From a virus, in IMG/VR virus record IMGVR_UViG_3300047551_002099, positions 15,811 through 79,810 of that record: a DNA stretch of 64,000 nt; one strand, written 5' to 3'. The notes beneath the pieces were generated by a model. That model had not been told where the DNA came from. It was given only the letters and a program-made list of their open reading frames with translations, and did no database searches. The stretch's first letter is position 1. Each line of letters begins with the position of its first letter. Positions 4,657 through 63,934 of the stretch are shown here, in pieces. The position numbers and the translations under genes are program-made.

Positions 4657-4761
4657 TTTCTTTCTTTGTTGGAACTAATAGTCTATTTGTAAGGTAGTCA
4701 TTACGAATATTACGGTTGCCGTACAGAACAGGCTTTATGTGTTTGTAGTATAGGTAAAAAG

Positions 4762-51100: not shown

Positions 51101-53758
51101 ATAAATAATAAATACGTTCCTAAGGGAAACGTCGATAAAGACTCTATAGAAACACTAGAAGAGCAATACAACAAATTGTTCGGTGTCAATGTTGACGTTA
51201 GGGATAATAACGAAGAAGCAGTAGCCGGAACAGCGGCTTACTTCAGCAAAAAGAAAAATGAACCCTATATTTGGGTGTCGCCTACCTTAAAACAAGACCC
51301 TGACTTACTGAAGGTTATTTTACCTCATGAATACCTACATGCTACACAAGATGAGCATAAAGCAAAATCTAGTAAGATTACTAATGATAAAGACTACGCC
51401 AGTTATTTAATTAAAAATCTTAAGATTGCTGAGTCCCTTGAAAATCTAACTGCTGAGGAACGTTCACGTGTTTTACATGGGTCTATACTTTCTAGTGCTG
51501 TTTATTTAGCTAATGCAGTAAAAGCAACAAGCACTACAGACTTGCTTAATGTAATGGAGAGTATTGCTAAAGATAGAGAAAATAATAAGACGGAATTTGG
51601 TAGCAGGGGTTTAGCCTACAGCATACTTAGCGAATTGGCAGCTTACGGTCTACAAGAGTCTATTGCAAAGGCAAGTGGAAGCAAGACCCGCTTAACAGCT
51701 GAAAAGCCAGATGCAGATATGGCTTCTTATACCAGGCTTCTGTTCCGTATCATGAAAACTTACGGAGTAGATATAGAAAAAGACCTGCTTAAAGTCCCTA
51801 ATTCTAATAAGGTCAGTTCTAATCAAGGTGTGTTAATCGCTTCTGCCAGGGTGTCAGATATGGGTATGCCTATTATTGTGGCTGACTCAAGATTGAAACC
51901 TAAACAGAAGCCGGTTCCTGTATCTTTCCTACGTCAAGTTACTGGGGCTACTCTAGAGTCTCTTATCTATTCAGGTAAGGGTATTAATCAAAGCTCAATG
52001 AAGGTGCTTGAGCAGCGACTTAATAAACTGTTTAATACGCCCGGGCTCAAACTTCAATATGAATTCCGAGACGGTGGTGCTGGTTCTTACAGCTCTTATT
52101 ACAATCGAATTCGGGTTAACGCAAAGTATAACAACTCTGGAGATATCCCTTATATGGTTGATACCATAGTCCATGAATATACACATGCCCGCAACGACAG
52201 ACTGTCTAAACAGTATAGTGGTATCCAAAATCCTAAAGAGTATGCAGAAGCAATTAATAAAGCTTACAACATTAAAGCTCAGATGGATCAGCTTTCGGAT
52301 GCTGAAAGAAAGTCAATCTTTAATAGTGCCATTCTTTCGACTATTAGTTCGATTGAGCAAAGATTCGATGAAGTAGGCGCTAAAGAAGCTACTTCTTTTA
52401 TACAACTATTGGAAAGACCAGATTTAGCTAAAAACGATAAGGAACTCGCCAAGTTTTTAAATGAGTCTACTCGGTTTGTCTTTGAGCGTTTCTTAGACGA
52501 GATATCCGGGGCTGTGATGGGTGGTCAAGCTGCCAAGATTGTAGGTGGCAACATTGAAAAGTATGATCTTACTAAAGAAGAAGGACAATTTGCAGCGGTA
52601 CTAAATAAAGTTTTCAACGCCTACGGGTTTTCGTTGGCAGATAATGTTTATGGCGGTCCTGCCGGTGGAACTGCGGAACGAGGTATGCTACGCCGGATTG
52701 CCGAAAATATTCCTATTCTTGACCTGTTCTTTCCCCCTCCGGCTGTAGGGGCCACGGTTTCCCCGGTTAATGCCCGCAGACGGCTTAGTAAAGCTCAACG
52801 TGCAGCTGAAAGGAACAAGAACAATAAGGATAATGTAGTCTATAAAGAGCAAAGATTACCTTTATGGAACCCTAACGACATCTATACTGATTCGTCGGCG
52901 GTGCCTGACCCAACTTCTATCTATAACCGCTTACCTAAACCAAAGGCCCCTGCAACGGCCAGTAACGTCTGGGGAATGCCTGGACACCGCCCAGCCCCGA
53001 CGGGTAACTATCATGATTATGGTAAACGACCGCCTCAAAATCCAAACCCTGTATGGGGAGGCCCGGGTAGTCGTCCTGAACAGACAGGCAACTACCAAGA
53101 TTGGGAACGGATACCCCAACGCGACCGGCCTACGCCACCGGTACCTACAGTACCCGGACACCGCCCAGAGCCGTGGGATATTCTTCCTCCATTAGGGAAT
53201 ATCCCCGGCGCTGTGCATCCGTTGGATAAAGGTAGAAAGCAGAAAGATGACTTTAGCATTCTTTGGCAGAAACGTAAGCTTCCAGTACCGGCTCGCCCTA
53301 AACAATATCCTGAATCAATTAAAGACCAAATTAAGGTTGCTATTCCAGGTTTGATTGTTGCAACTGTTAGTGGTGGGGCTGTAGTAAAAGGGGGGTTAGA
53401 CGATGACTTAATCAGGTTTGCTCAAGAAGCTGAAGCGGCTGTGAATAGCGCGGCAGCAGCGGCTATCCAGTTGGTTCAACAGGCTCAAGAAGATAAGGCT
53501 AACGCTGTGTTATCTTTTGAGCACCCGATTACTGCCGCTGCTGTTCGCCCTATCTATCAAGTAGGTCAAGAGTTACGAACTAAGAAGCGGCAGTTAATGG
53601 CGGTGCCTGATAATCAAGACAACGCTATTTATATTAGCCAGCAGGTAACTGTCCATGCTATCCAAGCTCAGTTAGCTAACCGGGATGTCAAGGTGCCTGT
53701 TATTCCCCAAGATGAAGCAGCTTCCCAATCCCGAATACCTAATACTAGGGCCGACTAA
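30158..53758 (+). CDS. giant 7866-aa tape-measure/DNA-delivery-like protein with multiple peptidoglycan hydrolase domains
   Basis: Uninterrupted 23.6-kb ORF with a long Ala/Gly-rich body and many hydrophobic helices. SLT-like IMAFETDG...GATGLIQF (~47920-48360), M23-like HAGQD...HRE (~48460-48860), lysozyme-like KGEGG...GAVGFPQL (~49040-49700), second M23-like GH...QGNTGHATGPH (~49880-50290), RlpA/DPBB ATYY...VTDTG...LDLS (~50474-50776), HEYLH (51326) and HEYTH (52172). Confidence 0.8.
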   Translation: MIQYETSVDGRLKFTLNDQYREIARQESGGNMSLRGTTNREQSPYGVVAYKHDTRKYSDFVQGLENLDVIQFAAPFNNVQKSLSSQPNIATNILESAYENIGLVQRMFPSEVGMLMRTGKLKSLLHDQTYFKSTVQQPIGFYDQQETVIKNQYQASRHQNKDGSNPLIIGHDPLELQHAKSTEGLYSKERYQQIKEEFAAKGLKEPVPTGKAQFTGAMFTDLAVGGLSLSGSGGVLGQYEDYSIGFENPTIVDWISEFRKTGLEKEYFVRESEAARGVKVTGNLSIYEERNKQLRDVAEILKIVDPKGEKGLAQITVGSPSMDWNEFARDSSSKDARQKQSVGTFIKLLQETAKYGSKNVLIMDPSRINIPENEQRRLKRSTYIGKSIRGKAQHSNTMGITMRPITGLTPEQTKLLEAKGLLEKAKTGVHTLNVGNARPTGNYSINQEIIIDMNKADAATRAGAAFIEANIAASHVAFLPRRDIAKEGIAGSMLQQFYMPTFKDSQKSGFTQEGLLPNMPLSMPQSFFRYFKPGTRTHIYSDRYRALTGKYATGLQGDVLRELDAKLSDPGPGNQINYFLRQRDLYEPGKGIIGTAAATVGRFIDTATGFYTMQAIKARESGQLGGSLRELYEKRQYDPYDQTENRGFFENLLTKTAGTLSATTTAMAAYFGVTHAYTMARAQIEQVGVDYVLESIARGHTEGVKSLFITQLLDPSHQELILGASTIYNADIPHLTVRNTGTAMEAYFNLTVNRSLQALQHTQYAGIITDEMIEAVASSDTFGDFVITDSNVTRLNSQIMGDSFEAVMDPTSNKRTMAAVVTRKLSQKLAALPEGAVISESTITPLIDDIYKEMGIDRQSGLIDLGRGTDSLDIKRGTQPAGFSNLAGVRRMDSSNLQHMFLPLLDDMVFDKGAKKYQSAKQNLLRLAQSTPALTYKNTANNIAAASDLRIYNYGYERMRQLAEVFDELATHLPANPLMWIKPIREVFAGSPTTGATTEQTIEHGAITTTRASFKDLIGPGFTGLINIQGEIVREVGRSMKVGLTQQLKDKFELLQTSRAVERSEADLVKQVARHGDVESFINTIWGNDVGDSMFLGHVNRQRRYNQLLRNQRKDYDELLNADTANPAFSGLRKALLGVGTVMIVDRLFDAYVLRPQGVDYFDSVMSDVIGSRSPKAGSEEDAKWQSLYDTEYSNAIPSIIKYPAAAAGFFVGGHLLPSYEATDSLVYEAVSKKYGVAAVNTLMSEAAGAASDDVADALRLSPKVIRSKFGTAGALLGASAALIGSQLAVNYLSAISKPVIRGLDNLFGGRWREEESGLDVDPVKGTAASALANIVQYSVQRQSVNYQKGWGATAEDKTDVYLLNLAAQGLMQSRSKPTQMFYPFATQIASPFFQFATVAKVDPGKNIIQLNTGFQLFPLLGAGLMLPSPITPKVQYTAPLSNRAIANYLKNYPEGIIMPGQPSTMAQHQETEAFVNMQELSKTGSMLLGGGVNLSFDGKPLVYMAMLGAASEFAKSGVDRFLAYKAEEQKWLYEKRQPLYRELQNYETLFHAGRVGLDTLDRVSRAAYSLSVIMPNYLAKAGSAFLGASGGTMHQLGPFARKAAPFALAFGLLGASFRLNDKAMESELPNYSRLQTMFKQKQYEGLTHEMIKADAINIGQVFVGTGLLGTTILSTGAFESARSFGNAYNIVEAGGPSTYIQRQKHKLYSMWLEHLQNQGEVLMPSLEGQTVTSLSKRSVATAEQALGVYGEINQAVGRAGQMQRRHLMKAASQIDLPLIRTAPTRLAMAARRVAPVMVGALAVAQVLATTEGFKDSPWLSLLKNFTSTGSSEYSSEQRAMLTKLGINQPRYQPKNLGDAFNNVRDYVVSSALLPFGGNTFGVYQDNPNPFSPIIGPLGLSLGSEDEARVYSQSQSVAADISGSLYLMPAMTNELANAMNLGPLLSYAKKLEKRPGAASLAKALIRGAGLRTKAAKFKGGPSQSDMQAVSSPELQMALTRRYDRLRNLSWQTSGELMMDVIGEFQRSGRIISDYRDGRIDGTPLNKTTAADTMIYDTLGKMRIVPIGSDGSFRLPKKTTERDLLKFIRTMTAQGAGFGEGVRLEASEDPADIMYGRSQDRGGIPVLSYFGGLFNYAFNSFYDKDTDLLTPDSSNIVGATLMAGSALVLGASFIGTSVSTVIQLAGSLAALSEYGTISDAKTSVRDLRMSVVKKLKQSSFALSSGGGPAIIRPRAHGYSRVLTPAHDIAEETLEQINLKFTGNTAFNRYTSGNALETIVTEEFGNVSRKLANQYSTVESLSDFIVQEVDVLNAQLGDQLNVVVGGESKSIASIFTPGSEAIQGIDSKALTEINQILVSGKHKQTQALEIERVLLNSFHRNLGLITAEGQFVNDGKLPAHQQSAKTQYAKEAAKQAVEQQAAALTGEVTPTYDPSIGFLRSKIQEKGYSGLIAEGTGGALRAAGELINLKAYYEVLSYTAAMGTTDQFERRRASQAAAQNTVQAFGLIIPMQYALGAVRRHPAIAMTVALGAAVAGGVALQNKGFRRFLEKTTRPVFSFLDTYAYKPAVQGLAGMYEGLAKFTPLPQLLRPVTAIFDPIFSGMRRAVQDDPALSMLANFFVPEGVEDFYRRNALLKTRMTPWGDSYEMYSKAEVGQYRAARLTAKRRRARTAQAGIDEDLLHPFLMGRSADVQSISLFEERYLGGDGRIMEQFQTERLTSNLMMMAIRRRQGLVDQHVGGSYMRQPYYKENVHHHFATVAALGTYSYAQTGDVFSAPVNQATRGLEKLYNLHAEIMNRLGPEAGPIIKRTLAGAALGYLAGAQFSHFGETEDERRRNAAIGGLAGSAIGGSTTLFLGPHFAARTEYILSRLGRNPFFRGIAGKAVAFGSAVGNVAKATFKGLGAFANKSFPYASFWGLSTAATYSNYDAAVNWVDGEDPAKKHPLYNPWVKLGISTGVGAVVTLAGYGAAGSQFTSGALAAGIGKSAAALGTAGGYGANWLLSSFLINFMLSNPYTGAAPRALAKTIYDRFGLGRDEDFGNFYNTGVLTSAAVVGSVTPWLSQKTHEDYITRLQRQLGYTDVDADGRAQRAVAELDELKRVLAAVEGTSGAVVAASPESKLQQLGIAPLVGPYNHEYVDEVIQQGIAEKRGRMSLVESLIDAQVQRGFLHNTLRSTKGILKATGHIGTLGFGYVLKGLAKTRRNLGLGFTIMGAGTAGGYLFSQLTANDTDSGAQLETTVSTLGGTYIAAGLYGAFGRHPDQVDVAGTQVIQRLTNWYTQKFGAGPDAPRYQPFRAAWRSLPRKFRRNTRYNFNRGWTWLKERFRDPRSSEAFPDGFTFGRSNFGQQFMQLKDKALPVAAFSIDVLNLYTSTSQINNLKYARSQADFMKAYSSYSSVVATTTFTSLMSLFARNASFSSFAMSTLQMSQISYAAGMRRSDYEYANAVDDPTAFQADKQKDFLMAGGVAGLSLVSAATSYARAGNQLPFQSRIAATLGRRVPFVLQGGSKFAAIADFAALPVAQTAVTGYEIQRIASDRNQKFGYSTNVATDAARNQVDLWAAFLFSVSAMALSRRPTTNSGLWFGKVIPGLTTGGVALAKDAFVPRLQYKLTERFREAGITNTYAQNVITRKAAKSASDNYWLTLGLSTAAAGAIFVLSRGRASKPMLLSLPAVTTSGVALYNYESTLSSEIEKRKAAGLGGLTKDDMVAYREWQQSGAIIPEAWKDSNQYRNWMIHRKDQQRRWDNFSANFFKSNRSFEGLGTQRIQNDWMISKDVLRANAEKMHSKALGKYESNPWATGSAVAGGGVLLGMMLRAQPHRMDGLAVGESFLDKKHIGKLAKFGIGELILPAVAVARKLSTDAEIRKLATRSLSPDVDGEIQFARASADISRMRDVVWQETLLAQMPLGGQSLLGRVTRHAVAHGIGKVIFDFNLNPMLLDLEQKEMLKYVRESRDKNLLTTERMQRALKAQANTNAGTIPALGLTALQMIATGRTNPMLLITGFKDSVLTYVGVKTALQSAIGKKRAVNVLLNKGNTVTGAVPDPTGASNIRAAGVSKEDEESNIVSDYFTNQFMLTTALPRLVPTLVGAGLSMWLNRRAWKHMKGATAKEAPKVEVVEPTQLPVEPEIVTPKPPGGTASKTITTTVHGEPGVTVGPSEPLKPVSTEAVVEPVKPVQPTPPAPTASPKPPQITPTVEPVVSAEPPPVASRQVISKVNPDVITSSGESGSVGLEEQTQNLLNQLRQQDSNPTGINKSKAALNTINNTPVETRQTVAQVTIQRSVHSTEMDSFILDTPDQTKIEKLVNQMRQVQTAFNSLSGQLEPVIRQKTGKDAAQGVIDVWQKRIDQLVEKISASTTNYDALTTYSRFLIELEGSFFMEGNDHFSPLHQGKIGGPVSGFGQANLALLQSALKAPFVQSQQLAFDLYGLSPTQDFTPGMPMPNDTMGLWVFGYVEGSGVDGSGKRDGGVRWNSEAGTSSNFVTLLNRGYHINLYPIIPAEVVTTKPISAPDIKPARPGQSRRLKRNYISPRGVKINKYRDPDSFRQQQASEAQSLSSEKLQANRLNSASSGSVNANSINKTYLETYKESKRQALSTAKTFVSTLSNNELTDFIEDMKSSVEELRSKGLSNLSSDEVNTYGLYSGNLQAAQLDQRRRQQLKPKSQAVEIFKHIRNSVTQDAFNYVITLNDSDLDSFIDETQAKVSQLQQKGFNAFTLEEAADYGMEVGRLRVAKAAKTHRSLEDNTSSTKSSSKQVINKVTNPEPTPAPTVTTPPAPEPIGPGKIETVASAPEITPKPLEQPTPPMLMDMVYGKAKESVTGVISKAKEIGQPFVSKVGQVARGTANQAWDGWTIFDRLEGVDARFGNQGIGGGAGFWTRFGQSAKYELSGRGIVEGGFGIGRNAQTGKVGIQGKGGAMAVAGMGLQLADDILTLDWSRKNFAKSLGTVAKNQATSLAAGVAFGLATAGLGALALSSVPALAALGVVGSAALMGYGIYSLADQGFKVGGKAWEKFVLKRKRTVEEQKAYEQQSQVLSMGFGVGTFVYAGYNQIKSLQGARQAASVVNQAPVVPTVPVRQAVDVIDDVAPRAPVSPARSGAVLKTAVPAAVATPKPNMLGATGKSFARNLNPRSLVKNPLAWLTVAEAGIGAVDDMYVKKKSWQKTLVNRGGQLAFGLLASAAVGTAMGALVALGVITMPAWLTTALVIGGLAATAWAVAPQVASIYGKVKEDFSSQLEDSKTIASRMDLNSREQASARISSSVALRSDATTSIKVNARASRDFVGYGDRRGANKELDLLGSPVAEFSPIPHVPLPSSQQVINQVNKPNRTTPAVVPIKPRSQQNITFIHKESISDSDVQGYLVGKTVTRDFDNITYDNSGFNTALYEGARYRKGSISGAVYLGPLGVNSSNAKGEGFARYYDKDSKYQFEVDTKTNKIFKIFPSGSKKTLSLPTGVEFIQTTEPGVTNTRRIIEEINNSNRRVVGIIGHGFLTTGYSTYRQKDGSYKEARIGKEEALRMSGVYVDAKGVTNIVHGLTEEKLAQLKRDKVKSVSLFGIKPVESGKHRYNRAFLVTSKKGEVQYVYLPQEVRHEDTRKYIKKQVPNYKDIVQFDGDTFAGYSLTDPKTGKAVPESRGKVPYMWAQPIFLTVPDSSVRKKDSSSKDNSLIREAAANRIGELKSEMTEEKLIQKGYTGTKLEAVKVLQGLDSDLAAGIAYLYGDVARVNKADLLNPDILNEALGKPLASMFSRGAQKVWTSGKEWLSGVGQSLTNSLTRAPIIGDLFFTPAAKAGEIPYDLMSQRQRQEAVDKEVKRRSAGSQYNLKAIQGKEQKVAKQIERPRAWWRSEDEEVPWWQKLFNLAAGAVSVTISGIGSLLKRTWNFLYKTGASISQGLSQALGGVAGEVMGPAGMIMPVMSAYQPNLTPEFREAINKTAANIGIPAEWLIGIMAFETDGTFNPAEPNKMGSGATGLIQFTPATARNMFGKSTAEMAKMSQIEQLKYVEKYFKAQVGKKKLTTFTDAYMAVLWPAAIGKGDNYTLFKRGTDAYTQNAPLDINKDGRVTAGEASAKAKAWLPGAQRTSYAIVGGAFGLGPNRVTETYITEKRGVSDQWGGPRGGRKHAGQDFNVQKNTPSQTYLGGIITRVAYQAGADLYNNYIDIYNPQLGVVERIAEFGNRRFTEKDIGKYIPPGTVVGIGSTSGPSVVHREIRTDLNAQKQGGFGYKGTVDYLKYLEERGIIRVEQIKGSPAKKVIPLASPIVLQSSSGQTQSQQVINQVQGPSTQSVSSPQVRKQLVSSLKTSSFTPLLNLMFKGEGGIESINVIRRNGDRTSNYSSTFQQQFGKSAADTTLGEIRARQRQRGTVTKTLKDGRKVSYDEIGAVGFPQLIGATLNDAMYALGFSETRKFNQQTQEQLFKYLVIIKRANLGAYLLGLEGSSLKEARQDLAREIASVPLVYPEAPLAQLQSSRISNIKDEWKANQQRQAGQSLYHGISGNVARVSGAEADKAIEQTRQLIAKDPALKAFLQKQYQEQQRLLAQQSAYQQQQSQRNVSYVPGVGAGRSKIVTNPASGVVTFRNDPDSREFVTGSDIQIGGIRNGVPIWNPIQGLTQVKPNSFQGRGRGRGGDGWGNVTRYRIDLGNNRVVEMLVGHGDRPFENYMGQGGLVPFALLGYQGNTGHATGPHATTSYKPVKGTNATAADARLVERMVQNAWTSKGSWVRVNGEWRLVKLNQAQQMGLLNGTQPSVQPSQTVKPQPVSQPARSQQQLKQSYQPAGDFKQVKATYYDPGFHGKRTAFGTIYNQNEMTVAVPRDRHNRPIIPFGTILEVVNPANGRRVYVKVTDTGSFGSMGRGLDLSLAAAQALGTIQAGVANVRYRVVKSAPSTKPQQKQQKGPVLNLPTIKPADYIPLVPTAPPPPSPSQPKKKKFNLLDPSTWLRSETPTDQAISASVMPSKMPSNVRQLRSAIPTAPVMLAQNKSTFIDDIIQINNKYVPKGNVDKDSIETLEEQYNKLFGVNVDVRDNNEEAVAGTAAYFSKKKNEPYIWVSPTLKQDPDLLKVILPHEYLHATQDEHKAKSSKITNDKDYASYLIKNLKIAESLENLTAEERSRVLHGSILSSAVYLANAVKATSTTDLLNVMESIAKDRENNKTEFGSRGLAYSILSELAAYGLQESIAKASGSKTRLTAEKPDADMASYTRLLFRIMKTYGVDIEKDLLKVPNSNKVSSNQGVLIASARVSDMGMPIIVADSRLKPKQKPVPVSFLRQVTGATLESLIYSGKGINQSSMKVLEQRLNKLFNTPGLKLQYEFRDGGAGSYSSYYNRIRVNAKYNNSGDIPYMVDTIVHEYTHARNDRLSKQYSGIQNPKEYAEAINKAYNIKAQMDQLSDAERKSIFNSAILSTISSIEQRFDEVGAKEATSFIQLLERPDLAKNDKELAKFLNESTRFVFERFLDEISGAVMGGQAAKIVGGNIEKYDLTKEEGQFAAVLNKVFNAYGFSLADNVYGGPAGGTAERGMLRRIAENIPILDLFFPPPAVGATVSPVNARRRLSKAQRAAERNKNNKDNVVYKEQRLPLWNPNDIYTDSSAVPDPTSIYNRLPKPKAPATASNVWGMPGHRPAPTGNYHDYGKRPPQNPNPVWGGPGSRPEQTGNYQDWERIPQRDRPTPPVPTVPGHRPEPWDILPPLGNIPGAVHPLDKGRKQKDDFSILWQKRKLPVPARPKQYPESIKDQIKVAIPGLIVATVSGGAVVKGGLDDDLIRFAQEAEAAVNSAAAAAIQLVQQAQEDKANAVLSFEHPITAAAVRPIYQVGQELRTKKRQLMAVPDNQDNAIYISQQVTVHAIQAQLANRDVKVPVIPQDEAASQSRIPNTRAD

Positions 53759-54224
53759 CTTTATCTTTAGTTTTAGGCTTCTTTTTACTACTTTCAATAT
53801 GCTTAGTCGCTTGACTAGATATACCTAACTGCTCAGGAGTTAAATTACCTCTAGTTAGGGCGTCGGCGATGTTATGCTCCCGGGGAATCCACTGCATACT
53901 CCAACTCTCGAAGCAGCTAAGTAGGTCTTTTGCGTAGGTGAGGGCAATATATAAATGAGCTTGTTTGGTGTTCCAATCACCATTAGAGCACTTAACTACT
54001 AGGTCGCTATCGCCATAGATTTCGATATGCTGAACGCCCATTTGAATAGCTTTGGTTAGTCCTAGGATTAACCCACCGAACTCAGCGCTGTTGTTGGTGC
54101 CTGTGCCCATGAACTGGGAGTATTCGTGTTTTGTATCGTCTGGGGTGATTAAGACAGCGCCAGCGGTGCAATGGCCCGGGTTACTCGGTGCTGCGCTGCC
54201 ATCAAAGAATAGAATTGCTTTCAT
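53745..54224 (-). CDS. rnhA: ribonuclease HI
   Basis: FFDGS, TNNSAEF, GDSDLVV and WIPREHNIADAL carry the D-E-D-D catalytic set. Confidence 0.92.
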   Translation of the reverse strand: MKAILFFDGSAAPSNPGHCTAGAVLITPDDTKHEYSQFMGTGTNNSAEFGGLILGLTKAIQMGVQHIEIYGDSDLVVKCSNGDWNTKQAHLYIALTYAKDLLSCFESWSMQWIPREHNIADALTRGNLTPEQLGISSQATKHIESSKKKPKTKDKVSRP

Positions 54225-54236
54225 AAGCCTCCGAAG

Positions 54237-54278
54237 AAAAAAAATAAAGCCTGCTATCCTATTATATCAAGCAGGCTT
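54237..54278 (-). terminator. intrinsic terminator after the SH3 gene, with an extended -10 (TGATATAAT) inside the hairpin
   Basis: Minus strand AAGCCTGCT-TGATATAATAGGAT-AGCAGGCTT followed by TATTTTTTTT. TGnTATAAT at 54269-54261 points at rnhA. Confidence 0.7.
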
Positions 54279-54286
54279 GGTGTTAC

Positions 54287-54580
54287 TTAATCAGCGCTAA
54301 CGCAGATATAGTCGTCACGTACCCAACCGGTGCGACCACCATAGGTCTGCACAGCAGTCCAATACATGCCGTTGACGGGTACGCTACGGACTGGGGTGAT
54401 AATATTTCCGGCATATAGCTTAGCTAGGCTACGAGCGCTTGTGGAAGGCGCTGAGCGGAGATGTACAAAGCTGCCTGGGTCATTAACACAGATATAAGCA
54501 GTTGGCCGAGCGTAGACACCGGGTACTGGAACGTAGCCTGGTCCGACTTGAGCTTGCGTCAGGAGTAAGAGTTCTAACAT
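54287..54580 (-). CDS. SH3b-domain protein with short hydrophobic leader
   Basis: VHLRSAPSTSARSLAKLYAG...WTAVQTYGGRTGWVRDDYI is a bacterial SH3 consensus. Confidence 0.85.
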   Translation of the reverse strand: MLELLLLTQAQVGPGYVPVPGVYARPTAYICVNDPGSFVHLRSAPSTSARSLAKLYAGNIITPVRSVPVNGMYWTAVQTYGGRTGWVRDDYICVSAD

Positions 54581-55128
54581 TAGATACTGACCTCTAATAA
54601 TTGAATGTTGTAGCGACTGATGAGCTTATACAGCAGGTCGCGGTCAGCCACAGTAGTTGTGGCAATACAGCCTGCGGTGCCGTCTTCTTTGCGGTTCTTT
54701 TCAAAGGATGGGTCAACATGGAAGCCTAATGCAGAACGACCGGTGTTGAACAGCGGGGTAATGTCTAGAAACTTACCGCCGACTTCGTGTTCACTACTGG
54801 TGCGGGCGTAACGATTAACTCGATAGCGACCGTTAGGTGGCGGGGCTTCTGTTCCAGCGACGTGGCGGTTTTTAGATTGGGTATGAGCGCGCCCAGCTAC
54901 GGTTTCAAACTCCGCCATTACTACTCCGCTGACAATAACGGTCAGCTTATAGATGGGATTGCCGAACTTGTTTACTGTCCCGCTAGGGGTTAGCACCAGC
55001 TTAGTAACGGCTTCTTTTGTTGGAGCAGCACTAATCGGTGGTGGGATAACCTCTATGGGTTGAGAAGGAGTTGGAGTAGCCCCGCAGGCTCCCAGACTTA
55101 TTAACGCGAGTAATAGAATTGCTTTCAT
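54580..55128 (-). CDS. lipoprotein with L,D-transpeptidase (YkuD/Tlde1-like) catalytic motif
   Basis: Lipobox LGAC, PPPNGRYRV, and the H-x14-GC motif GFHVD...GTAGCI. Confidence 0.7.
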   Translation of the reverse strand: MKAILLLALISLGACGATPTPSQPIEVIPPPISAAPTKEAVTKLVLTPSGTVNKFGNPIYKLTVIVSGVVMAEFETVAGRAHTQSKNRHVAGTEAPPPNGRYRVNRYARTSSEHEVGGKFLDITPLFNTGRSALGFHVDPSFEKNRKEDGTAGCIATTTVADRDLLYKLISRYNIQLLEVSI

Positions 55129-56288: not shown

Positions 56289-56359
56289 AGTAACCTCCTA
56301 TGAGTATAGGTAACTAAATCTGGACTAATTTTGTATTGCACTTATTTTTTGTTTAACAG

Positions 56360-56399
56360 AAAAAGACGCTAGAGGTTTGTGGTAACCTCTAAGGTCTTT
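56360..56399 (-). terminator. intrinsic terminator closing the Ubl operon
   Basis: Minus strand AAAGACCTTAGAGGTT-ACCACA-AACCTCTAGCGTCTTTTT. Confidence 0.7.
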
Positions 56400-56408
56400 C
56401 GTTTGTGT

Positions 56409-57116
56409 CTACAGAAACCGACCTTCAGTCGCCAAGGTTAATTGGGCGCCGCTATAGTTGAGCCTAAATGGCAACGGCTTGTTTTCTAGTAGCGCGTAGA
56501 CAACTTCATTAGTCATCAATGCACTGGCGAAGTTGGCGTTGATTAATTGAGGGCTGGACACGGCTTCGTAGCCACAACTACCACGGGGCTGGTCGCTAGG
56601 ACGTTCGTAGTTAGTAGCTACGTCGAAGGGGTGAACCGGACGTAGTTTACCTTCCACGCGGGAGTACCAGAGGCAGGTAGCAGTATGGAAGTCGTTACCT
56701 GGTAGGACGCAGGCGAAGTCCAACATTGGGTCGAGGTCGTCTAGGTCTTTGATAACTTCGTTGCGGGCGGACTCAGAGTCAACGGCTAATACTACCAGCG
56801 CCGCGCCGGGTTCGTCACAGTGAGTAATATATTCCTCCAGCTGGGTACGAAACTTGTACCGCCGCACGAAGTCTGGTACCGCACTGATATTACAGACAGA
56901 CTCTAACCGCTTAGCAGCGGCGGCAGCTTTGTTCATACCTACGAAGGCAGGGTCGAATAATTGCCTTACGCTATTAGACGATTCATACTCATCGCCGTCG
57001 TACACACAGACGTTCTTGGTGCCTTCCTTGTGATAAGCTAACAGCCGGACTAAAGGCTCTAATAGAATCGAACCGGTTCCACCGGCGCCAATGACGTGGG
57101 CACTAGAAAATTTCAT
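56409..57116 (-). CDS. E1-like ThiF-family adenylating enzyme
   Basis: VIGAGGTGS nucleotide-binding loop, DGDEYESSNSVRQ, GMNKA, AVDSESAR, candidate catalytic Cys in RGSCG, then QLINAN. Confidence 0.9.
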   Translation of the reverse strand: MKFSSAHVIGAGGTGSILLEPLVRLLAYHKEGTKNVCVYDGDEYESSNSVRQLFDPAFVGMNKAAAAAKRLESVCNISAVPDFVRRYKFRTQLEEYITHCDEPGAALVVLAVDSESARNEVIKDLDDLDPMLDFACVLPGNDFHTATCLWYSRVEGKLRPVHPFDVATNYERPSDQPRGSCGYEAVSSPQLINANFASALMTNEVVYALLENKPLPFRLNYSGAQLTLATEGRFL

Positions 57117-58047
57117 TCTTGGCTCCTAAGATTTCAAATTTGGATTTAGTGGATAAGGTTTTTGAGTAAAGCACCAAGTCGCGGCAGGTCGTTAAGTACC
57201 CACTGGGAGTTTTCTTTACCCAGCCAACCACGTAGGTTTTATCGTGTTTAGGCCGGTAGTGGTGGCTTAAAGGGACTGTCTCGAACAGCTTCCCGCGGTC
57301 GGTAATTACCATTGCTTGAGGTCTTTTGGTAGCGACTTTCAAGGCTAAATCAGAAGACCGAAAGGAAGTAGCTTCTTCTAGACTAAGGTGCGGCGGGGTG
57401 GGACTGGTTCGCTGGGCATACTCTTCATGGTCGTAGCTACTAAGTAGAAGTTCCGTGCTGCGGTCGTTTGTCCCCTGGGCCAGGTCTTGGTTAAAGTTGC
57501 TGGTGAAGAACGTATTGAACGCTTCCAGATGGTCGCGCGGCTGTTCTGCTCTACCCCAACAAATCTCACCGTTATGGTAAACGTTAGCTAACCGGTAGGG
57601 CACGTAGGTGCCGTCTTTGGTAACCGCAAATAGTTTCCAGCTCCCATGGTATATAGATATCAAAGACTTCGGAACGTGGATAGTCTTTGTGCCGTATAAG
57701 TGCTCTTCAACTGTGCATCCCAACCTGCATTTGTTGTCAAATACGCGGAGTGTGCCACCATCGCAAAGCTCGCACTCATCCATGAAGGCTCTCCTATATG
57801 TCTGCAGTTCGAAGAATTTGTAATCGGCCCGCTCGAAGGCAGTTGTCTTGATAAACAACTTAGTAATGTCATCTATAGGTTTGTAATAGAAACAACCTTT
57901 GCAGGTCTCTTCAAACGAGTCTTGGCGGTTATAGCGGATGTCAATGCTGAAGGGGTCAAACAAGCAGGAGATTTTTATCCTGTTGCTTTTGTTGATACTA
58001 AAAATGGCCCCCGCCGCGATGGACGGGAACCGAAGCACTTTGAACAT
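57103..58047 (-). CDS. prokaryotic E2-like protein (Prok-E2 family D/PRTRC protein B type), paralogue 2
   Basis: PYRLANVYHNGEICWG...FNTFFTSNFNQDL. Cys-rich N-terminus (CKGC, CELC, CRLGC). Confidence 0.75.
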   Translation of the reverse strand: MFKVLRFPSIAAGAIFSINKSNRIKISCLFDPFSIDIRYNRQDSFEETCKGCFYYKPIDDITKLFIKTTAFERADYKFFELQTYRRAFMDECELCDGGTLRVFDNKCRLGCTVEEHLYGTKTIHVPKSLISIYHGSWKLFAVTKDGTYVPYRLANVYHNGEICWGRAEQPRDHLEAFNTFFTSNFNQDLAQGTNDRSTELLLSSYDHEEYAQRTSPTPPHLSLEEATSFRSSDLALKVATKRPQAMVITDRGKLFETVPLSHHYRPKHDKTYVVGWVKKTPSGYLTTCRDLVLYSKTLSTKSKFEILGAKNEIF

Positions 58048-58048
58048 A

Positions 58049-59251
58049 TCAGTATAGGCAGGTGTTGATGATGTCTTCAGCTACAGGCATATAGACGTTC
58101 AAGTCTAGCTTCTGTGCTAACAGTGCAGCTAGCAACTCTTGACCGCGGGGACAAGCCATTAGAGCGTCGGCGTAGATATCCAAGTTGGTTAGAATATCTT
58201 TCAGTGTTTCCTTCTCTTCACCGTTCAGGTCAACGGTTCGCTGGTCACGGAAGTTCTTGAACTCAACTTCGTGCTTGAGTTCATGCTTAATATCCTTCTC
58301 GTAATCGCGGAACTTATTAGCCTGGTTGGTGTAGGTATAGTTCCCGTACCAGCCGTTGGAGTAGCCGGTGGTATAGTAGGTGTCGTCCCAATCGTCCCAT
58401 TCGTCAAGCCCATAGAGCTGGTCGCGGGGCATGAGGTTGGTGTTCGCTGAAGCGGGGGGTGATTTGTACTTAGTAACCCAGGAGTTAGCGCGATAAGCGT
58501 AAGCAGTAGCCCTGGTAACGTAGGTGCTGGCTAACGGAGAAATCTCTACTACCTTGCTGTCGTAAACAGTCATCACCTTACATTTGTCGTTCGAGCCGAC
58601 GGTGGCTACGCCATCCAGGTTTAACAACAAGTCAGGCTGGAAGATATACCGCTTTTTGTTTAAGACGATGGAGCAGCAGATGTCGAACGAATGCGGGGTA
58701 ATCACCCCGATGGTGCAGTGCATCCCCGGTACGCCCAGTTCGCCTTGGTCATCCCGCCCACTCCAAAAGGCGCTCATTGAGTTATGAGAATGCATGGACC
58801 CGGAATGACAGTAGCCTTCCGGTGGAAATACCGTGTATTCTTCCCCGGTAAATAAGTCGCAGCTGTGGGTCGTAACGGCGTCTACAGTGACGCTGGTCAC
58901 CGACTGCATAGGCACGACGACTTTCCACTGACTGGGGTCGTCTACCCCGCGCAGTAGGCACACTTGCACTTCGGTGCTGCCAACGACGTAGGCGGAGCCA
59001 TTGGTCGACATGTAGCTACGGAAGAAGGTGACAATGCCTTGGAGTAAGTGGAAGGGCAGGCGGTCGAACTGTTCTTTTAGCCACATGTAATCGACTTCGG
59101 CGGGCTTGTCGACGCCTTTCGGGTCTTTGATAGGTACGTAGTATTCGCCCCAGTAGCTACTCTTCTGAAGTTTGAAGCAGCCGTCCTTAGTCCGAATGAA
59201 CGGGGCTTTCTCTGTTTCTTTCACCGGCGCGGTGGTTAATGTTTGAGTCAT
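58049..59251 (-). CDS. JAB/MPN+ metallopeptidase (deubiquitinase-like)
   Basis: TEVQV glutamate, VPMQSVTSVTV, and MHSHNSMSAFWSGRDD (H-x-H-x7-S-x2-D). Confidence 0.9.
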   Translation of the reverse strand: MTQTLTTAPVKETEKAPFIRTKDGCFKLQKSSYWGEYYVPIKDPKGVDKPAEVDYMWLKEQFDRLPFHLLQGIVTFFRSYMSTNGSAYVVGSTEVQVCLLRGVDDPSQWKVVVPMQSVTSVTVDAVTTHSCDLFTGEEYTVFPPEGYCHSGSMHSHNSMSAFWSGRDDQGELGVPGMHCTIGVITPHSFDICCSIVLNKKRYIFQPDLLLNLDGVATVGSNDKCKVMTVYDSKVVEISPLASTYVTRATAYAYRANSWVTKYKSPPASANTNLMPRDQLYGLDEWDDWDDTYYTTGYSNGWYGNYTYTNQANKFRDYEKDIKHELKHEVEFKNFRDQRTVDLNGEEKETLKDILTNLDIYADALMACPRGQELLAALLAQKLDLNVYMPVAEDIINTCLY

Positions 59252-59267
59252 AATTTAGTAGGCTCCG

Positions 59268-60830
59268 TTAGAAGGTTGCTAGTTGCTCTTGCTGATCTTG
59301 CTGTTGCCGCTCTTTCATCAACTGTTTTAGTTCAGCCATGGTGAAATACCCCAGTCCGCATACCGAGTTGATTTCATTAGTCTCTAGACCAGTCTCTTCT
59401 TGAATTAGTTGGCAGTACATCAAGGCCTGCTCTAAGATGAAGTGCTGTCTTTCTCTTGACGACCATTTATCAGATACTCCAGAGTCTACAGTTGGAACCT
59501 CAGCGGCTTCTAGTTTTTTCTGTAGCCGTTCCTGAAGTGAACAGGGCTTTACTTCGGCTTTGAGCTTGTTGAGGTCGATAACCTTTAGGTCACTCAACTT
59601 ACCGCCAGCTAAGAAACGAACCAGTGCTTTCCCTGTTGAGTTATTCACTTTGTACACAAACGCCAGGCTGAAGCTAACGTAGTTTGTGTAGGAAAGCCTA
59701 ATAGAAGAGTCATAGACTGGATACGGTCGGAACTTTAAGGTCATTTCACTTCTTAAAGAGACGGTTACTGGTAACGAAGGAGACTGGCACATCAATAGCC
59801 CAATTACGTCGTTGTCGGCGTAGTAAGAGTCGTATGCTCCGTCGTAAAGAGTAAAGTCTTTTTCCAGGTGGTCTAGAAAGCTTTCGTTGCTGGTGAATCG
59901 GTAGTAGTGTTCGACCTTGGGGTAGCGGTCATCATCACTTGGGTTATACACCACAGACGGGGTTCCTTCTTCATCGTCTTCGTCTTCGTACTCCCGGGTT
60001 TCGGAGTCGTAAGGCGAGTAAGAATCGTTGTATTCATGAGGAACCAAGTCGTAGTTGAAGGCGCTACTGAAGTAAGTTGCGTAGGCACCGCGAGGGTCGT
60101 AAGGACGCCCCTGTTCACCCCAGCAGATGTCTCCGTCACCGTATACGTTACCCAATAAGTAAGGCACCCCAATAGCGTTGACAGTCTTTACTTCTTGGCC
60201 GTTGAGGGTCTTTACTTTGTCTAAAACGTGTCGTAAGGCAAAGACCTTAAAGTACCCACACCCGACTTCTTCAGCGTCGATACGTCTTAAATCCATGTTG
60301 CTCTGCCATAGTAAATTAGGCACTTTTAGATTCACAGCGGCAGAGAAGGTCTCCCCAGCCCGACACGGCTGGCCATCTTTCAGACGTTGCTCTTCTTCTA
60401 CACCGAGCAGGTAGCTATTTGACAGGCCCGGGCAAGCGTTAGGCAACTTACGGTAGTATTCTTTGTAATAGGGGGTTAAGTCCATCCAACCCAACATTGC
60501 CTTGATTTGATCCTCTTTTGAGCGGTTGAGCAGGTAGGTTCTGCGGGAGTAGGAGTGTCCAGTTATGCTGCGAAGGGTTCTGTTAAAGAACACTTCATCA
60601 TTGGTTAGTTTCTTTGTTAAATGGGTTTTGATGGAGTCTGATGCTTTGCTACGAGCGTTCTGGCTGCATTGTCTACAGCGGTTTGCACTGATGTCGCAGA
60701 CGAGTTCGTCGTCTAGCAGAATTTCTTTTTCTTCTGCTTCAGTGATGTTATAAACTGCCAGTGAGCTGTTACTCGATAGCACGTTAACATAGACTGTCTT
60801 AGTGCCTTTCGGGAAGTAGAATACTTTCAT
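59268..60830 (-). CDS. prokaryotic E2-like protein (Prok-E2 family D type), paralogue 1
   Basis: PYLLGNVYGDGDICWG...AYATYFSSAFNYDL. N-terminal CRQC and further Cys residues. Confidence 0.72.
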   Translation of the reverse strand: MKVFYFPKGTKTVYVNVLSSNSSLAVYNITEAEEKEILLDDELVCDISANRCRQCSQNARSKASDSIKTHLTKKLTNDEVFFNRTLRSITGHSYSRRTYLLNRSKEDQIKAMLGWMDLTPYYKEYYRKLPNACPGLSNSYLLGVEEEQRLKDGQPCRAGETFSAAVNLKVPNLLWQSNMDLRRIDAEEVGCGYFKVFALRHVLDKVKTLNGQEVKTVNAIGVPYLLGNVYGDGDICWGEQGRPYDPRGAYATYFSSAFNYDLVPHEYNDSYSPYDSETREYEDEDDEEGTPSVVYNPSDDDRYPKVEHYYRFTSNESFLDHLEKDFTLYDGAYDSYYADNDVIGLLMCQSPSLPVTVSLRSEMTLKFRPYPVYDSSIRLSYTNYVSFSLAFVYKVNNSTGKALVRFLAGGKLSDLKVIDLNKLKAEVKPCSLQERLQKKLEAAEVPTVDSGVSDKWSSRERQHFILEQALMYCQLIQEETGLETNEINSVCGLGYFTMAELKQLMKERQQQDQQEQLATF

Positions 60831-60846
60831 AGTTTAGAAAGGAAGT

Positions 60847-60883
60847 AAAAAAAGAGAAGACCCCGCGTTAGCAGGGCCATCTC
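60847..60883 (-). terminator. intrinsic terminator between the Ubl gene and the enzyme genes
   Basis: Minus strand GAGATGGCCCTGC-TAAC-GCGGGGTCTTCTC-TTTTTTT. Confidence 0.8.
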
Positions 60884-60901
60884 TAGTTGCAATTCTTTTA
60901 C

Positions 60902-61246
60902 TTACGCGCCTTTGGTGTCCGCGCTGGCAGAGGCGGTGACTAGTTCACCCGCTTTAGGGATGTAGTCTTTGGAGACGTAGGTGGTCTGAATTTTGAAGTT
61001 CAGCCGGCTGACGTCACTTACGCCGATGGAACCGCGGTACTCCTGGACGATTTGCTGCAGGGTTTTGGTGCCGTCCACAGTAGCTACGAACTCTTCGGTT
61101 CCGTAGCGAATGACGATTTGGGACTCAGGGTTGAACTGCTCTTCAGTAAACTCACCTTCGTCGAAATCGGGCTCGAAGTCCGCGAAGAGTTCTTCTTCGG
61201 TAGCTTCGGTGGAGTTAACGGGAGCGTTGGTTTCGTAATCAGACAT
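60902..61246 (-). CDS. ubiquitin-like (beta-grasp) protein with acidic N-terminal extension
   Basis: GAGGA RBS. C-terminal ~70 aa IVIRYG...TLQQIV...DYIPKAGELVT ending DTKGA, like prokaryotic Ubls ending in (T)KG. First gene of an E1/E2/JAB operon. Confidence 0.75.
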   Translation of the reverse strand: MSDYETNAPVNSTEATEEELFADFEPDFDEGEFTEEQFNPESQIVIRYGTEEFVATVDGTKTLQQIVQEYRGSIGVSDVSRLNFKIQTTYVSKDYIPKAGELVTASASADTKGA

Positions 61247-61421
61247 GGGAAATCCTCAATGTTGGTAATGGTTATTAAAACTTGACTCTCTCTTCTAATT
61301 AAGAAGTGCCTATAGCAAAGCCGGCTAAGGAGCCACTAATAGACTTAGGTCATAAGGTTTATTTCTTTGTTTCTTCTTGCCTTCCCTCTTCTATTTTCAC
61401 GCCCATCTACTTAAACTCCGG

Positions 61422-61682
61422 TTAAAACTCTAAGACATAACAGGTTACGGGACCCGCGTTAAACAGAATGTGCCATTTAATATTAGACCGCATCTCTTCT
61501 ATGTCCCACAGATAGCTTAAGTCTAACATAAGAGACTTATCTTCGACATACTTTTCACCGTCGTGCCAGTAGCATCTAAGGGTGCTATAAAGAGCCGGGC
61601 CGCCTTCTACTATGTCTAGGACTTCGTTAAATGTTAAGTAAGCGTATTCCTGCTCTTTGGCTAGAGCTGCAGTTGACGTCAT
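61422..61682 (-). CDS. hypothetical protein
   Basis: 86-aa ORF overlapping the upstream stop (ATGA). Confidence 0.55.
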   Translation of the reverse strand: MTSTAALAKEQEYAYLTFNEVLDIVEGGPALYSTLRCYWHDGEKYVEDKSLMLDLSYLWDIEEMRSNIKWHILFNAGPVTCYVLEF

Positions 61683-61927
61683 TGACTGTGAAACTCCTGA
61701 TACTTCATTAACCCATCGACGGCGCCGTTAACACCTATCTTGCCGGTGGGGGTGATGTAGATAGCGATTAGCTTATCTAACCGCTCAATAAACTCGATAG
61801 CTTTTTGAGCTGGCCCTGTGTTAAGTCCAATTAAGTAAAGCAGCTGTGTCTTTGTCTGCTCACTCTTTGCTTTTTTCTTTAACACGTTGAAGGTTTCTAA
61901 GTCAGTCATGATTCTTCTAGGTCTCAA
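61679..61927 (-). CDS. hypothetical protein (true start may be the ATG at 61909)
   Basis: 82-aa ORF coupled to the next gene. Confidence 0.55.
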   Translation of the reverse strand: MRPRRIMTDLETFNVLKKKAKSEQTKTQLLYLIGLNTGPAQKAIEFIERLDKLIAIYITPTGKIGVNGAVDGLMKYQEFHSQ

Positions 61928-62717: not shown

Positions 62718-63272
62718 ATGCAAGAACGAGAAAGGTATTTGAACGGCTATAAACTGGTGCATGCTCCTGACAATTTTTCTATTATGGATAGTGAAAATTG
62801 GTCGGGATGGGTGTATGAGCATAGATACGTAATGGAGCAACATTTAGGTAGAGCTCTGACCTCAGAAGAGGTTGTGCACCACTTGGACGGTAATAAGGAT
62901 AATAACCATATCACTAACTTGATAGTGCTCTCTAAGATAGACCACGGTAAGTTACATCGTTGGATGGATAGTAAGATAATCGTGGATAAACCAGAAACTC
63001 AACCTATTATCGTTGAGTGTGCCCACTGCAAAGCTAAATTTAAAAGACTTAATAAAGACTCTAAATATTGCTCTAATGAGTGTGCTCATTATGCCTCAAG
63101 GAAAGTCGTTAGACCTACTGCGGAGCAGTTAGCCAAATTAATCTGGCAATATCCTATGACTCAGCTTGGAGCTATGCACGGTGTTAGTGATAAGGCTGTT
63201 AAAAAGTGGTGTAAAGCCTACGGTATAACCGAGTTTCCTCCTAAAGGTTACTTTTTACGAAAGCTTGCATGA
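62718..63272 (+). CDS. HNH homing endonuclease (inserted antisense in tRNA-Ile2)
   Basis: VYEHRYVMEQHLGR...VVHHLDGNKDNNHITNL, followed by CxxC...CxxxC and an HTH-like tail. TATAAT at 62686. Stop codon lies on the tRNA anticodon loop. Confidence 0.92.
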   Translation: MQERERYLNGYKLVHAPDNFSIMDSENWSGWVYEHRYVMEQHLGRALTSEEVVHHLDGNKDNNHITNLIVLSKIDHGKLHRWMDSKIIVDKPETQPIIVECAHCKAKFKRLNKDSKYCSNECAHYASRKVVRPTAEQLAKLIWQYPMTQLGAMHGVSDKAVKKWCKAYGITEFPPKGYFLRKLA

Positions 63273-63379: not shown

Positions 63380-63380
63380 T

Positions 63381-63410
63381 TGGTGGAGATGGGGAGAGTC
63401 GAACACTCCA
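63381..63410 (-). ncRNA. ssrA: tmRNA acceptor piece, 3' segment (T-loop, acceptor 3' strand, CCA)
   Basis: GTTCGACT-CTCCC-CATCTCC-ACCA. CATCTCC pairs with GGGGATG at 62537-62531, giving the AlaRS G3:U70 pair and A73. Confidence 0.88.
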
Positions 63411-63416
63411 TAGAGT

Positions 63417-63445
63417 TTGACTCTTATACAAGTATAAGCTATCAT
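63417..63445 (+). promoter_or_regulatory. sigma70-type promoter for the second HNH gene
   Basis: TTGACT-N17-TATCAT, 6 nt upstream of ATG 63452 (near-leaderless mRNA). Confidence 0.65.
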
Positions 63446-63451
63446 ATACTT

Positions 63452-63934
63452 ATGAAAAAAGCAAAAGCTGACAAAACCCCAAGAACTTGCTTCACCTGTA
63501 AAGCTGATTTTGTCCCTTCTAGCAACCACAAAAATTGTCCTGTATGCCGTTCTTTAGCAAGAAAGCATTTTTGTGACTGCGGCAAGGAGATATGGGAAAA
63601 GTCTACTAGGTGTTTACGATGCCATAATCTCAATAAAACAGGTAAGTCATTGGGTGTTACTTACCACAAGAGAGGTTATGTCATGCGGAGGGTTCATAAG
63701 GAATATGTTTTTGAACATATTCTTGTTATGGAGCGCCATCTCGGTCGTAAGCTACTAGAAGGTGAAAATGTGCACCACATTAATGGTGTTAAAGACGACA
63801 ACCGTATCGAGAATCTTGAGCTGTGGACTCGACCCCAACCGGCTGGAGTTCGCGCCAAAGATATTCTTAAATGGGCTAGACAAGTTATTGAAACCTATGA
63901 GCCTATAGAACATCTGCTTTCAAGTTCTGAGTAG
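63452..63934 (+). CDS. HNH homing endonuclease with Zn-finger N-terminus (inserted antisense in tmRNA)
   Basis: CxxC repeats, then YVFEHILVMERHLGR...NVHHINGVKDDNRIENL. ATG at 63452 is preferred over the ORF-track start. Confidence 0.92.
   Translation: MKKAKADKTPRTCFTCKADFVPSSNHKNCPVCRSLARKHFCDCGKEIWEKSTRCLRCHNLNKTGKSLGVTYHKRGYVMRRVHKEYVFEHILVMERHLGRKLLEGENVHHINGVKDDNRIENLELWTRPQPAGVRAKDILKWARQVIETYEPIEHLLSSSE

Follow-up and report, generated by a model that had tools for sequence, protein, structure and literature searches.

The 64,000-nucleotide stretch of viral DNA analysed here (the window) is part of a 79.8-kb contig, IMG/VR record IMGVR_UViG_3300047551_002099, and carries at 56409-61246 five open reading frames (ORFs), all on the minus strand. 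Together they appear to encode a pathway that attaches a small ubiquitin-like protein (Ubl) to other proteins. In the order of the operon the products are the Ubl, a long E2-like protein (E2a), a JAB/MPN+ metallopeptidase (JAB), a second E2-like protein (E2b) and a minimal ThiF-type adenylating enzyme (E1). With a probability of about 0.7 we consider this an intact and conserved phage operon for a self-contained ubiquitin-like conjugation cascade that operates without an E3. The assembly of these genes goes beyond chance, because E1 and E2b pass the gathering scores of the Pfam families ThiF (55 bits, cut-off 28.1) and Prok-E2_D (27.6 bits, cut-off 25), and because the same five genes stand in the same order in two further contigs (L002 and L014), with ratios of non-synonymous to synonymous substitution (dN/dS) of 0.06-0.21. 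An earlier reading of the DNA letters (the preliminary description) had recognised a Ubl, two E2 proteins, a JAB and an E1 borne by a phage outside its structural module, and this identification is borne out by the motifs, the Pfam scores and the viral nature of the contig.

Modifier, enzymes and proposed reaction

All sequence motifs named in the preliminary description were found again, that is NVYxxGxICWG...FxSxFNxDL in both E2-like proteins, HSH-x7-S-x2-D in JAB, and GAGGTGS together with Cys181 in E1. E1 (56409-57116, 235 amino acids) is a short stand-alone protein with neither a rhodanese domain nor a fused E2 or JAB. It was aligned with three phage homologues and two canonical ThiF proteins of the PRTRC family (ParB-Related, ThiF-Related Cassette). 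In this alignment the nucleotide loop GAGGTGS (GxGGTGS; G10, G12 and G13) and the residues D40, N48, R51, Q52, K63, D113, R118 and C181 are all invariant, C181 being the only invariant cysteine; the residues for adenylation are intact.

E2b (57103-58047, 314 amino acids) is composed of a UBC-like core at about residues 113-215 that contains Asn155 and Cys163, an inserted site of four cysteines and a beta-rich C-terminal domain. Asn155, Cys163 and Gly165 are invariant across 45 aligned family members, 38 of which match Prok-E2_D. The spacing Asn-x7-Cys is that of the HPN...Cys active site in canonical E2 enzymes. Four further cysteines (C49, C52, C95 and C107), which do not vary within the close subfamily, probably form a zinc site. 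The family is small: phmmer, run exhaustively over 1.84 billion representatives, yielded only 54 relatives of E2b at E <= 0.001. An AlphaFold2 (AF2) model of E2b built on the 45-sequence alignment reached a predicted local distance difference test score (pLDDT) of 90.5 and a predicted template modelling score (pTM) of 0.82. When this model was compared by VIA-align with 48,161 chains, all 15 top rows were UBC-fold proteins (Z 4.0-4.9). Fourteen of these are E2 enzymes (UbcH10, UBE2D2, E2S, UBC9, UBC12, Ubc13 and others) and the remaining one is Fts, an E2 variant. Among the E2 rows, the 13 that fit best cover 111-120 aligned residues at a root-mean-square deviation of 3.2-4.1. The preliminary description had made its reading depend on whether the E2-like proteins have a UBC fold; for E2b it is UBC-fold enzymes that rank first.

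E2a (59268-60830, 520 amino acids) begins with a cysteine-rich region. Its UBC-like core, which contains Asn228 and Cys236, is joined by an acidic linker to a long C-terminal region. Judged by sequence it is a paralogue of E2b, with 48% identity over the 48-residue active-site core. With the profile of the E2 family E2a gives E = 2e-25 to 7e-28; Pfam Prok-E2_D itself is not matched. Its full-length orthologues (511-527 amino acids; P0015 and P0024) keep N228, C236, W237, G238, N259, D261 and L262. A sequence-profile search of the PDB with the E2 family gave nothing significant, and a scan of IMG/VR with the query P0002 gave no match. No cellular relative of the E2 was seen in a scan of genome contigs with the E2 alignment, a weak negative since the patterns used were narrow.

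JAB (58049-59251, 400 amino acids) consists of a JAB-N-like region, the JAB domain (H154-S-H156, S164 and D167) and a lineage-specific C-terminal extension of about 185 residues. The motif HSH..M.AF.S..D is exact and does not vary when two PRTRC_A proteins are aligned along with the family; the upstream catalytic glutamate could not be placed with confidence. The preliminary description had proposed to search these proteins with family profiles. ThiF and Prok-E2_D pass their gathering scores, as given above, and Prok-JAB stays below its own (14.8 bits, cut-off 25). A PDB profile search with the JAB alignment returned nothing significant, the sole JAMM match being AMSH-LP at E of about 0.8.

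The Ubl (60902-61246, 114 amino acids) ends in DTKGA and belongs to a small family, of which sequence searches found 15 clusters among 5.8 billion. Residues 1-41 form an acidic tail with 15 Asp or Glu and no Lys or Arg, which is less conserved and keeps a few aromatic and acidic positions; a beta-grasp-like core of about 72 residues and the end ...SADTKG-A follow. In the alignment of 17 Ubl sequences S-x-x-x-D-[TS]-K-G is invariant. Past the glycine there is no residue (two members), a single one (A, N, C or Y), or a stretch of 3, 4, 5, 10 or 11 unrelated residues. This is the pattern of a modifier with its functional end at the glycine and a tail that is cut off, because D[TS]KG does not vary while what lies beyond it varies between 0 and 11 residues. 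The beta-grasp fold, which the preliminary description had expected of the 114-residue protein, is supported but not proven. A homologue with 54% identity (P0065) has an ESM Atlas model (pLDDT 0.57) whose neighbours are clusters of the Ub-RnfH, MoaD/ThiS, ubiquitin/Rad60-SLD, TmoB and BAG types (TM score 0.55-0.63), and the best PDB sequence match of a six-sequence Ubl profile is polyubiquitin, in register from residue 1 (E = 0.62). A link of the Ubl to the virion was considered and discarded: in the PDB the 17-sequence profile best matches a major capsid protein (7kmx_A), at its N-terminus, with a non-significant E = 0.053.

The last four of the five co-oriented genes nearly abut or overlap, as the preliminary description had it. 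The Ubl and E2a genes are separated by 71 nt, E2a and JAB by 16 nt and JAB and E2b by 1 nt, and E2b overlaps E1 by 14 nt. Consensus scan and fold energy identify two hairpins on the minus strand. The first, a hairpin with a T-run at 56359-56392 (also delimited as 56392-56369), resembles an intrinsic terminator and lies directly after the E1 stop codon (-19 kcal/mol, z = -5.4), in agreement with the closing terminator proposed before. The second (60849-60878), a GC-rich hairpin with a U-run, resembles a terminator or attenuator and stands between the Ubl and E2a genes (-25 kcal/mol, z = -5.6). An equivalent hairpin and U-run is found at the same position in L014. The position is thus kept although the letters differ, which suggests a partial terminator that lets the modifier outnumber the enzymes.

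We propose that the Ubl is made as a precursor from which the JAB peptidase would remove the residue or residues past Gly113. The minimal E1 would then adenylate Gly113 at the expense of ATP, with a probable thioester on Cys181 as the next state. From there the Ubl would be handed to the catalytic cysteine of either E2, Cys236 in E2a or Cys163 in E2b, and the asparagine eight residues upstream of that cysteine would play the role of the canonical HPN asparagine. Each E2 may select its own targets by means of its large non-catalytic domains and transfer the Ubl to a target lysine, and JAB may also reverse the modification. The terminator-like hairpin after the Ubl gene would provide the modifier in excess over the enzymes. 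We infer every chemical step of this cascade, as well as its targets.

Conservation, transcription and surroundings of the operon

The preliminary description had called for a survey of the operon in related phages, and this brought up all five genes, in unchanged order, in both contigs mentioned above. L002 is a 216-kb IMG/VR phage of 96% completeness, and its proteins are 96% (Ubl), 85% (E2a) and 94-97% (JAB, E2b and E1) identical to those of the window. L014 is a 104-kb metagenome contig (JACCDR012184855.1) with 77% identity for Ubl and E1, 63% for JAB, 41% for E2b and 33% for E2a. Between the window and a close relative dN/dS amounts to 0.10 for Ubl, 0.21 for E2a, 0.11 for JAB, 0.19 for E2b and 0.056 for E1. 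All five genes are under purifying selection and are thus maintained, and the two E2 genes change fastest, E2a most of all.

A relative of about 93% identity (run X3, a 34-kb contig from the assembly of another study) is collinear with the window over exactly 56402-61271. In place of the flanks at 56350-56402 and 61271-61912 it has unrelated sequence of 367 and 723 letters. We therefore take 56402 and 61271 as the borders of the cassette, since collinearity stops there with both flanks exchanged. A relative of about 93% identity was found, at a small share, in runs labelled 'subsurface' and 'soil', from which we draw no conclusion on habitat.

A JAB-E2-E1 core with a single E2, and a Ubl gene 8-17 kb away from it, are kept in two large phages that are more distantly related (125 kb and 190 kb). 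In G002 and G003, the latter 96% complete according to CheckV, this unlinked Ubl gene adjoins a sigma-factor gene. The JAB homologue of L004 is 42% identical to that of the window. The ORFs beside the unlinked Ubl genes (L009 1855-3309 and L010 1869-3293) look sigma-70-like by eye, with a large insertion in region 2 that is possibly an intein. An HNH endonuclease gene lies directly upstream of the JAB-E2-E1 core at L004 5365-5775 and L005 4272-4658. In the 190-kb phage of L005 (IMGVR_UViG_3300035681_000001; 4696-7442) the JAB gene is split inside the HSH...S..D motif, right after HSHNTM. The counterparts of window residues 17-159 and 161-267 are found in two ORFs about 1.1 kb apart with a LAGLIDADG endonuclease ORF between them, which looks like an intron-type or homing-element insertion.

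Three genes (g86, g82 and g377) were considered as sixth components and rejected, as they accompany the cassette in close relatives only. None of the five proteins has a match in PHROGs, and by blastn the operon matched none of 50,697 phage records. As to transcription, a 568-nt contig of a freshwater metatranscriptome covers 60957-61501, that is the 5' part of the Ubl gene and the region upstream of it, with 100% identity, a weak hint that the Ubl region is transcribed. The enzyme genes have no cover among the contigs of one RNA-library run; these are contigs alone, so this is no sign that the genes are silent.

The contig itself has a CheckV completeness of 64%. It is viral, being an IMG/VR record with genes for tail sheath, tail fibre and TerL, and its DNA was obtained from a freshwater metagenome. 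The closest cultured relatives of its TerL are those of the Microcystis phages Ma-LMM01 and MaMV-DC (33% identity). The host is probably a cyanobacterium, because of these nearest TerL proteins and the freshwater origin, and the carrier, a large freshwater myovirus, is probably a cyanophage. In the window the structural block ends next to the operon. After the terminase and structural genes one unbroken ORF of 7866 amino acids extends over 30158-53758 (plus strand). Downstream of the operon and on its strand, the region 53745-55128 (minus) encodes a candidate YkuD-like L,D-transpeptidase (19.4 bits, below the cut-off), a bacterial SH3 domain protein (38.7 bits) and a 159-amino-acid ORF that is RNase H-like by eye. 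On the other side, two ORFs of 184 amino acids each with HNH-type motifs are located at 62718-63272 and 63380-63934 (plus strand).

Possible targets and alternative functions

For the role of the cascade the preliminary description had listed the tagging of host, own or rival proteins and the jamming of host defence, which we regard as pure inference. Our best guess, weakly held, is the tagging of non-self proteins, of the host or of a rival phage, during infection, because the E2 proteins evolve far faster than Ubl and E1. The E2 proteins are probably the variable, target-selecting parts of the system. This fits with a Bacteroides-type prophage in which a diversity-generating retroelement is reported to act on PRTRC protein B, an E2 and a hotspot of this diversification, along with the receptor-binding protein (bioRxiv 10.64898/2026.10.01.756045). 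In its most specific form, an offensive viral Ubl system whose two fast-diversifying, E3-independent E2 proteins put an acidic-tailed Ubl on host defence proteins or proteins of rival phages, we offer this role tentatively and would rather bet against it than for it. If phages do tag host or rival proteins, the known direction of bacterial ubiquitin-like warfare would be reversed, and it would become understandable why such cassettes ride on mobile DNA. An offensive system would mirror host defence of the Bil or ISG15 type and would give the 6d/PRTRC class its first function.

Several points weigh against the conjugation cascade or against the role assigned to it. The structural Z values of E2b are low in absolute terms (below 5), so that the weight of this comparison lies in the ranking, and a Foldseek search of the same model against the PDB gave no match at E <= 0.001. 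The Pfam score of JAB is below the gathering score. The AF2 model of the Ubl itself, built from four sequences, is too poor for use in Foldseek (pLDDT 45), and for this reason the beta-grasp call relies on the modest ESM model of the homologue P0065, together with sequence matches that are not significant. The fast evolution of the E2 proteins could equally reflect relaxed constraint on their non-catalytic domains, and the contig from the RNA library could be contaminating DNA. In the searchable literature we found neither biochemistry of the window system nor experimental work on any PRTRC or 6d system.

Among the alternatives, the same chemistry could be directed at proteins of the phage itself. 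These could be parts of the virion, or regulators like the sigma factor whose gene stands beside the Ubl gene in two relatives. Assembly could be controlled in this way, or lysines targeted by a host defence of the Bil type could be blocked in advance. Since a phage tail protein is tagged in Bil defence, it could matter whether lysines are already occupied. The neighbourhood of Ubl and sigma-factor genes in G002 and G003, at 8-17 kb from the enzymes, and the position of the operon at the end of the structural block speak for this possibility. Self-targets, however, usually co-evolve slowly, yet it is the E2 proteins that evolve fastest here; moreover, no conserved neighbour accompanies the cassette beyond close relatives, and the only virion-like signal is the non-significant capsid match of the Ubl profile (E = 0.053). 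Modification of phage proteins is rather unlikely in our estimation, and we weakly favour the tagging of non-self proteins over it as over the two further alternatives, sulfur transfer and partition.

Alternatively, the operon might tag nothing at all: E1 would thiocarboxylate Gly113 of the Ubl for the synthesis of a cofactor or thio-metabolite, as in ThiS/ThiF, MoaD/MoeB, CysO/Mec+ and QbsE/QbsD, and JAB would merely trim the carrier or release the product. Among sulfur carriers there are known cases, QbsD/QbsE for example, in which a JAB protein trims the residues past the C-terminal glycine. E1 has the size of ThiF and MoeB and shows weak matches to those families, one Ubl homologue matches Pfam ThiS (E = 0.043), and clusters containing ThiS are among the ESM neighbours. 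A sulfur relay would nevertheless have no use for two E2-like proteins with an invariant Asn-x7-Cys under purifying selection, E1 is devoid of a rhodanese domain, and the cassette includes no sulfurtransferase or biosynthetic gene. The best named relatives of E1 are furthermore PRTRC proteins (63 bits) and not ThiF or MoeB (about 27 bits or less), and we consider a sulfur carrier improbable.

Hardly probable at all is an accessory function in replication or partition, in which the operon would help to maintain or segregate the phage genome and would not tag factors of host or rival: PRTRC is named after its ParB partner, is called a partitioning cassette in a Burkholderia gladioli prophage (PMC13366799) and adjoins ParB on the viral contig L007, but ParB_N (PF02195) is present in none of the four related phage records (G000-G003, two of them 96% complete) with control genomes positive, an NCBIfam search found no PRTRC helical protein in the cassette, and an enzymology of E1, E2, JAB and Ubl implies protein conjugation whatever process is served.

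Relation to PRTRC and other conjugation systems

Three families of bacterial Ubl conjugation have been shown to work, namely type II CBASS, Bil and Bub, the three that are listed as characterised in 2024 papers of the Corbett laboratory; of these, CBASS and Bil defend against phages (PMC11601596, PMC11601603). The 6d/PRTRC systems are a fourth large class, known from sequence since 2006 and located mostly on mobile elements, among them phages and plasmids. The lineage of the window is a clean, ParB-free version of it, with a clear rule for processing the modifier, two E2 proteins that resemble specificity modules and a hairpin that may set the stoichiometry.

The preliminary description had named the system its best candidate for an undescribed one. 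This did not hold, since PRTRC cassettes are present in published prophages and on IMG/VR viral contigs, and Prok-E2_D, JAB and ThiF genes in cultured Vibrio phages. The prophage of B. gladioli, for instance, carries PRTRC A, B, C, E, F and ThiF together with ParB and was read as harbouring a partition cassette (PMC13366799). Phage carriage of a PRTRC-type cassette is therefore not new. D69, D181 and D148, which are Vibrio phages in culture (OZ195729 and related records), have a Prok-E2_D-like, a Prok-JAB (35.5 bits) and a ThiF-like gene side by side. These are likewise large phages of the lytic type, and the genes are annotated as hypothetical proteins only. In contrast to the window, their E1 is about 29% identical to that described here, there is one E2 of 229 amino acids, the order is the canonical E2-JAB-E1, and no Ubl was identified. 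In D69 (OZ195729.1; L016 4985-5951) the ThiF-like match at 5001-5417 of the locus starts upstream of the annotated 251-amino-acid coding sequence and overlaps a tiny coding sequence on the opposite strand, so that the E1-like gene is probably cut short in the deposited annotation.

The Bil system (BilABCD; PMC10557695) shares with the window separate genes for Ubl, E2, a JAB-type deubiquitinase and E1, has no E3 and conjugates proteins in the conflict of phage and host. It differs in being host-encoded and anti-phage, and it has a multidomain E1, an E2 of another family and a CEHH protein. The window cassette lacks all three. Of the PADLOC models for BilA-D a sole one, BilD, matched, with E1 of the window (10.4 bits, E = 0.047); the other four proteins had no match. 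Type II CBASS (Cap2/Cap3; PMC10097602; bioRxiv 10.1101/2022.03.31.486616) has the adenylation chemistry of an E1 and a JAB peptidase in common with the operon, and E1 matches, over residues 8-101 only, the E1 part of the E1-E2 models of PADLOC with up to 30.5 bits. In Cap2, however, an E2 and an E1 are fused, and what it conjugates is a CD-NTase and not a Ubl, and the window cassette contains neither a CD-NTase nor an effector. Bub (type 6E/DUF6527; PMC11601596), too, is bacterial, and combines E1, E2 and Ubl with a peptidase of its own. Its E1 and E2 lack the catalytic cysteine and form oxyesters, and its protease is of the Ser-His type, whereas E1 and both E2 proteins of the window keep the cysteine and the peptidase is a JAB; no match to DUF6527 was found in Pfam scans of the cassette proteins. 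By these comparisons the operon is neither Bil nor CBASS nor Bub.

The closest named family for E1, E2b and JAB is, by sequence, PRTRC or operon type 6d. The latter, described by Iyer, Burroughs and Aravind in 2006 (PMC1779556), comprises a small Ubl with a C-terminal glycine, an E2-like protein with a conserved cysteine, a JAB that includes a JAB-N region, and an E1 encoded on its own, and PRTRC is represented in NCBIfam by TIGR03734-03738 and related models. Common to both and to the window are a small Ubl with a conserved C-terminal glycine (...GTKG in PRTRC_C of the viral IMG/VR contig L007, ...DTKG-A in the window), a Prok-E2_D type E2 with a conserved cysteine, a JAB with a JAB-N-like region and a short stand-alone ThiF-type E1 that shares the invariant cysteine. 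The PRTRC likeness claimed in the preliminary description stands insofar as the best named matches of E1, E2b and JAB are to this family, and falls short insofar as all of them are below the curated NCBIfam cut-offs. E1 matches PRTRC ThiF (TIGR03736) with 63.4 bits over residues 6-129 against a cut-off of 144.75, which the canonical protein of L007 exceeds (171.6 bits). E2b scores 17.3 bits with PRTRC protein B (TIGR03737; cut-off 131.45), to which E2a has no match, and JAB scores 17.9 bits with PRTRC protein A (TIGR03735; cut-off 101.8), within the HSH..S..D segment only. The Ubl has no match to PRTRC protein C (TIGR03738) at E <= 0.1, and hhalign of the Ubl family with a single PRTRC_C sequence detected no similarity; only the C-terminal TKG is common to the two.

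The gene order differs as well. L007 has the canonical PRTRC order ParB - C - x - x - B - A - ThiF with ParB adjacent, as opposed to Ubl-E2a-JAB-E2b-E1 in the window. In addition, the window has two E2 paralogues of 314 and 520 amino acids with added cysteine-rich and C-terminal domains, a Ubl with a 41-residue acidic tail and a trimmed C-terminus, and a JAB extended by about 185 residues. According to the curated cut-offs the cassette is a distant relative of PRTRC and not a member of it. It is predicted to work like a PRTRC or 6d cascade and yet, by sequence comparison, constitutes a separate, diverged branch of unusual, two-E2 form, because of its scores below the cut-offs, the absence of ParB and of the helical proteins, its other gene order, its two enlarged E2 proteins and the acidic extension of its Ubl.

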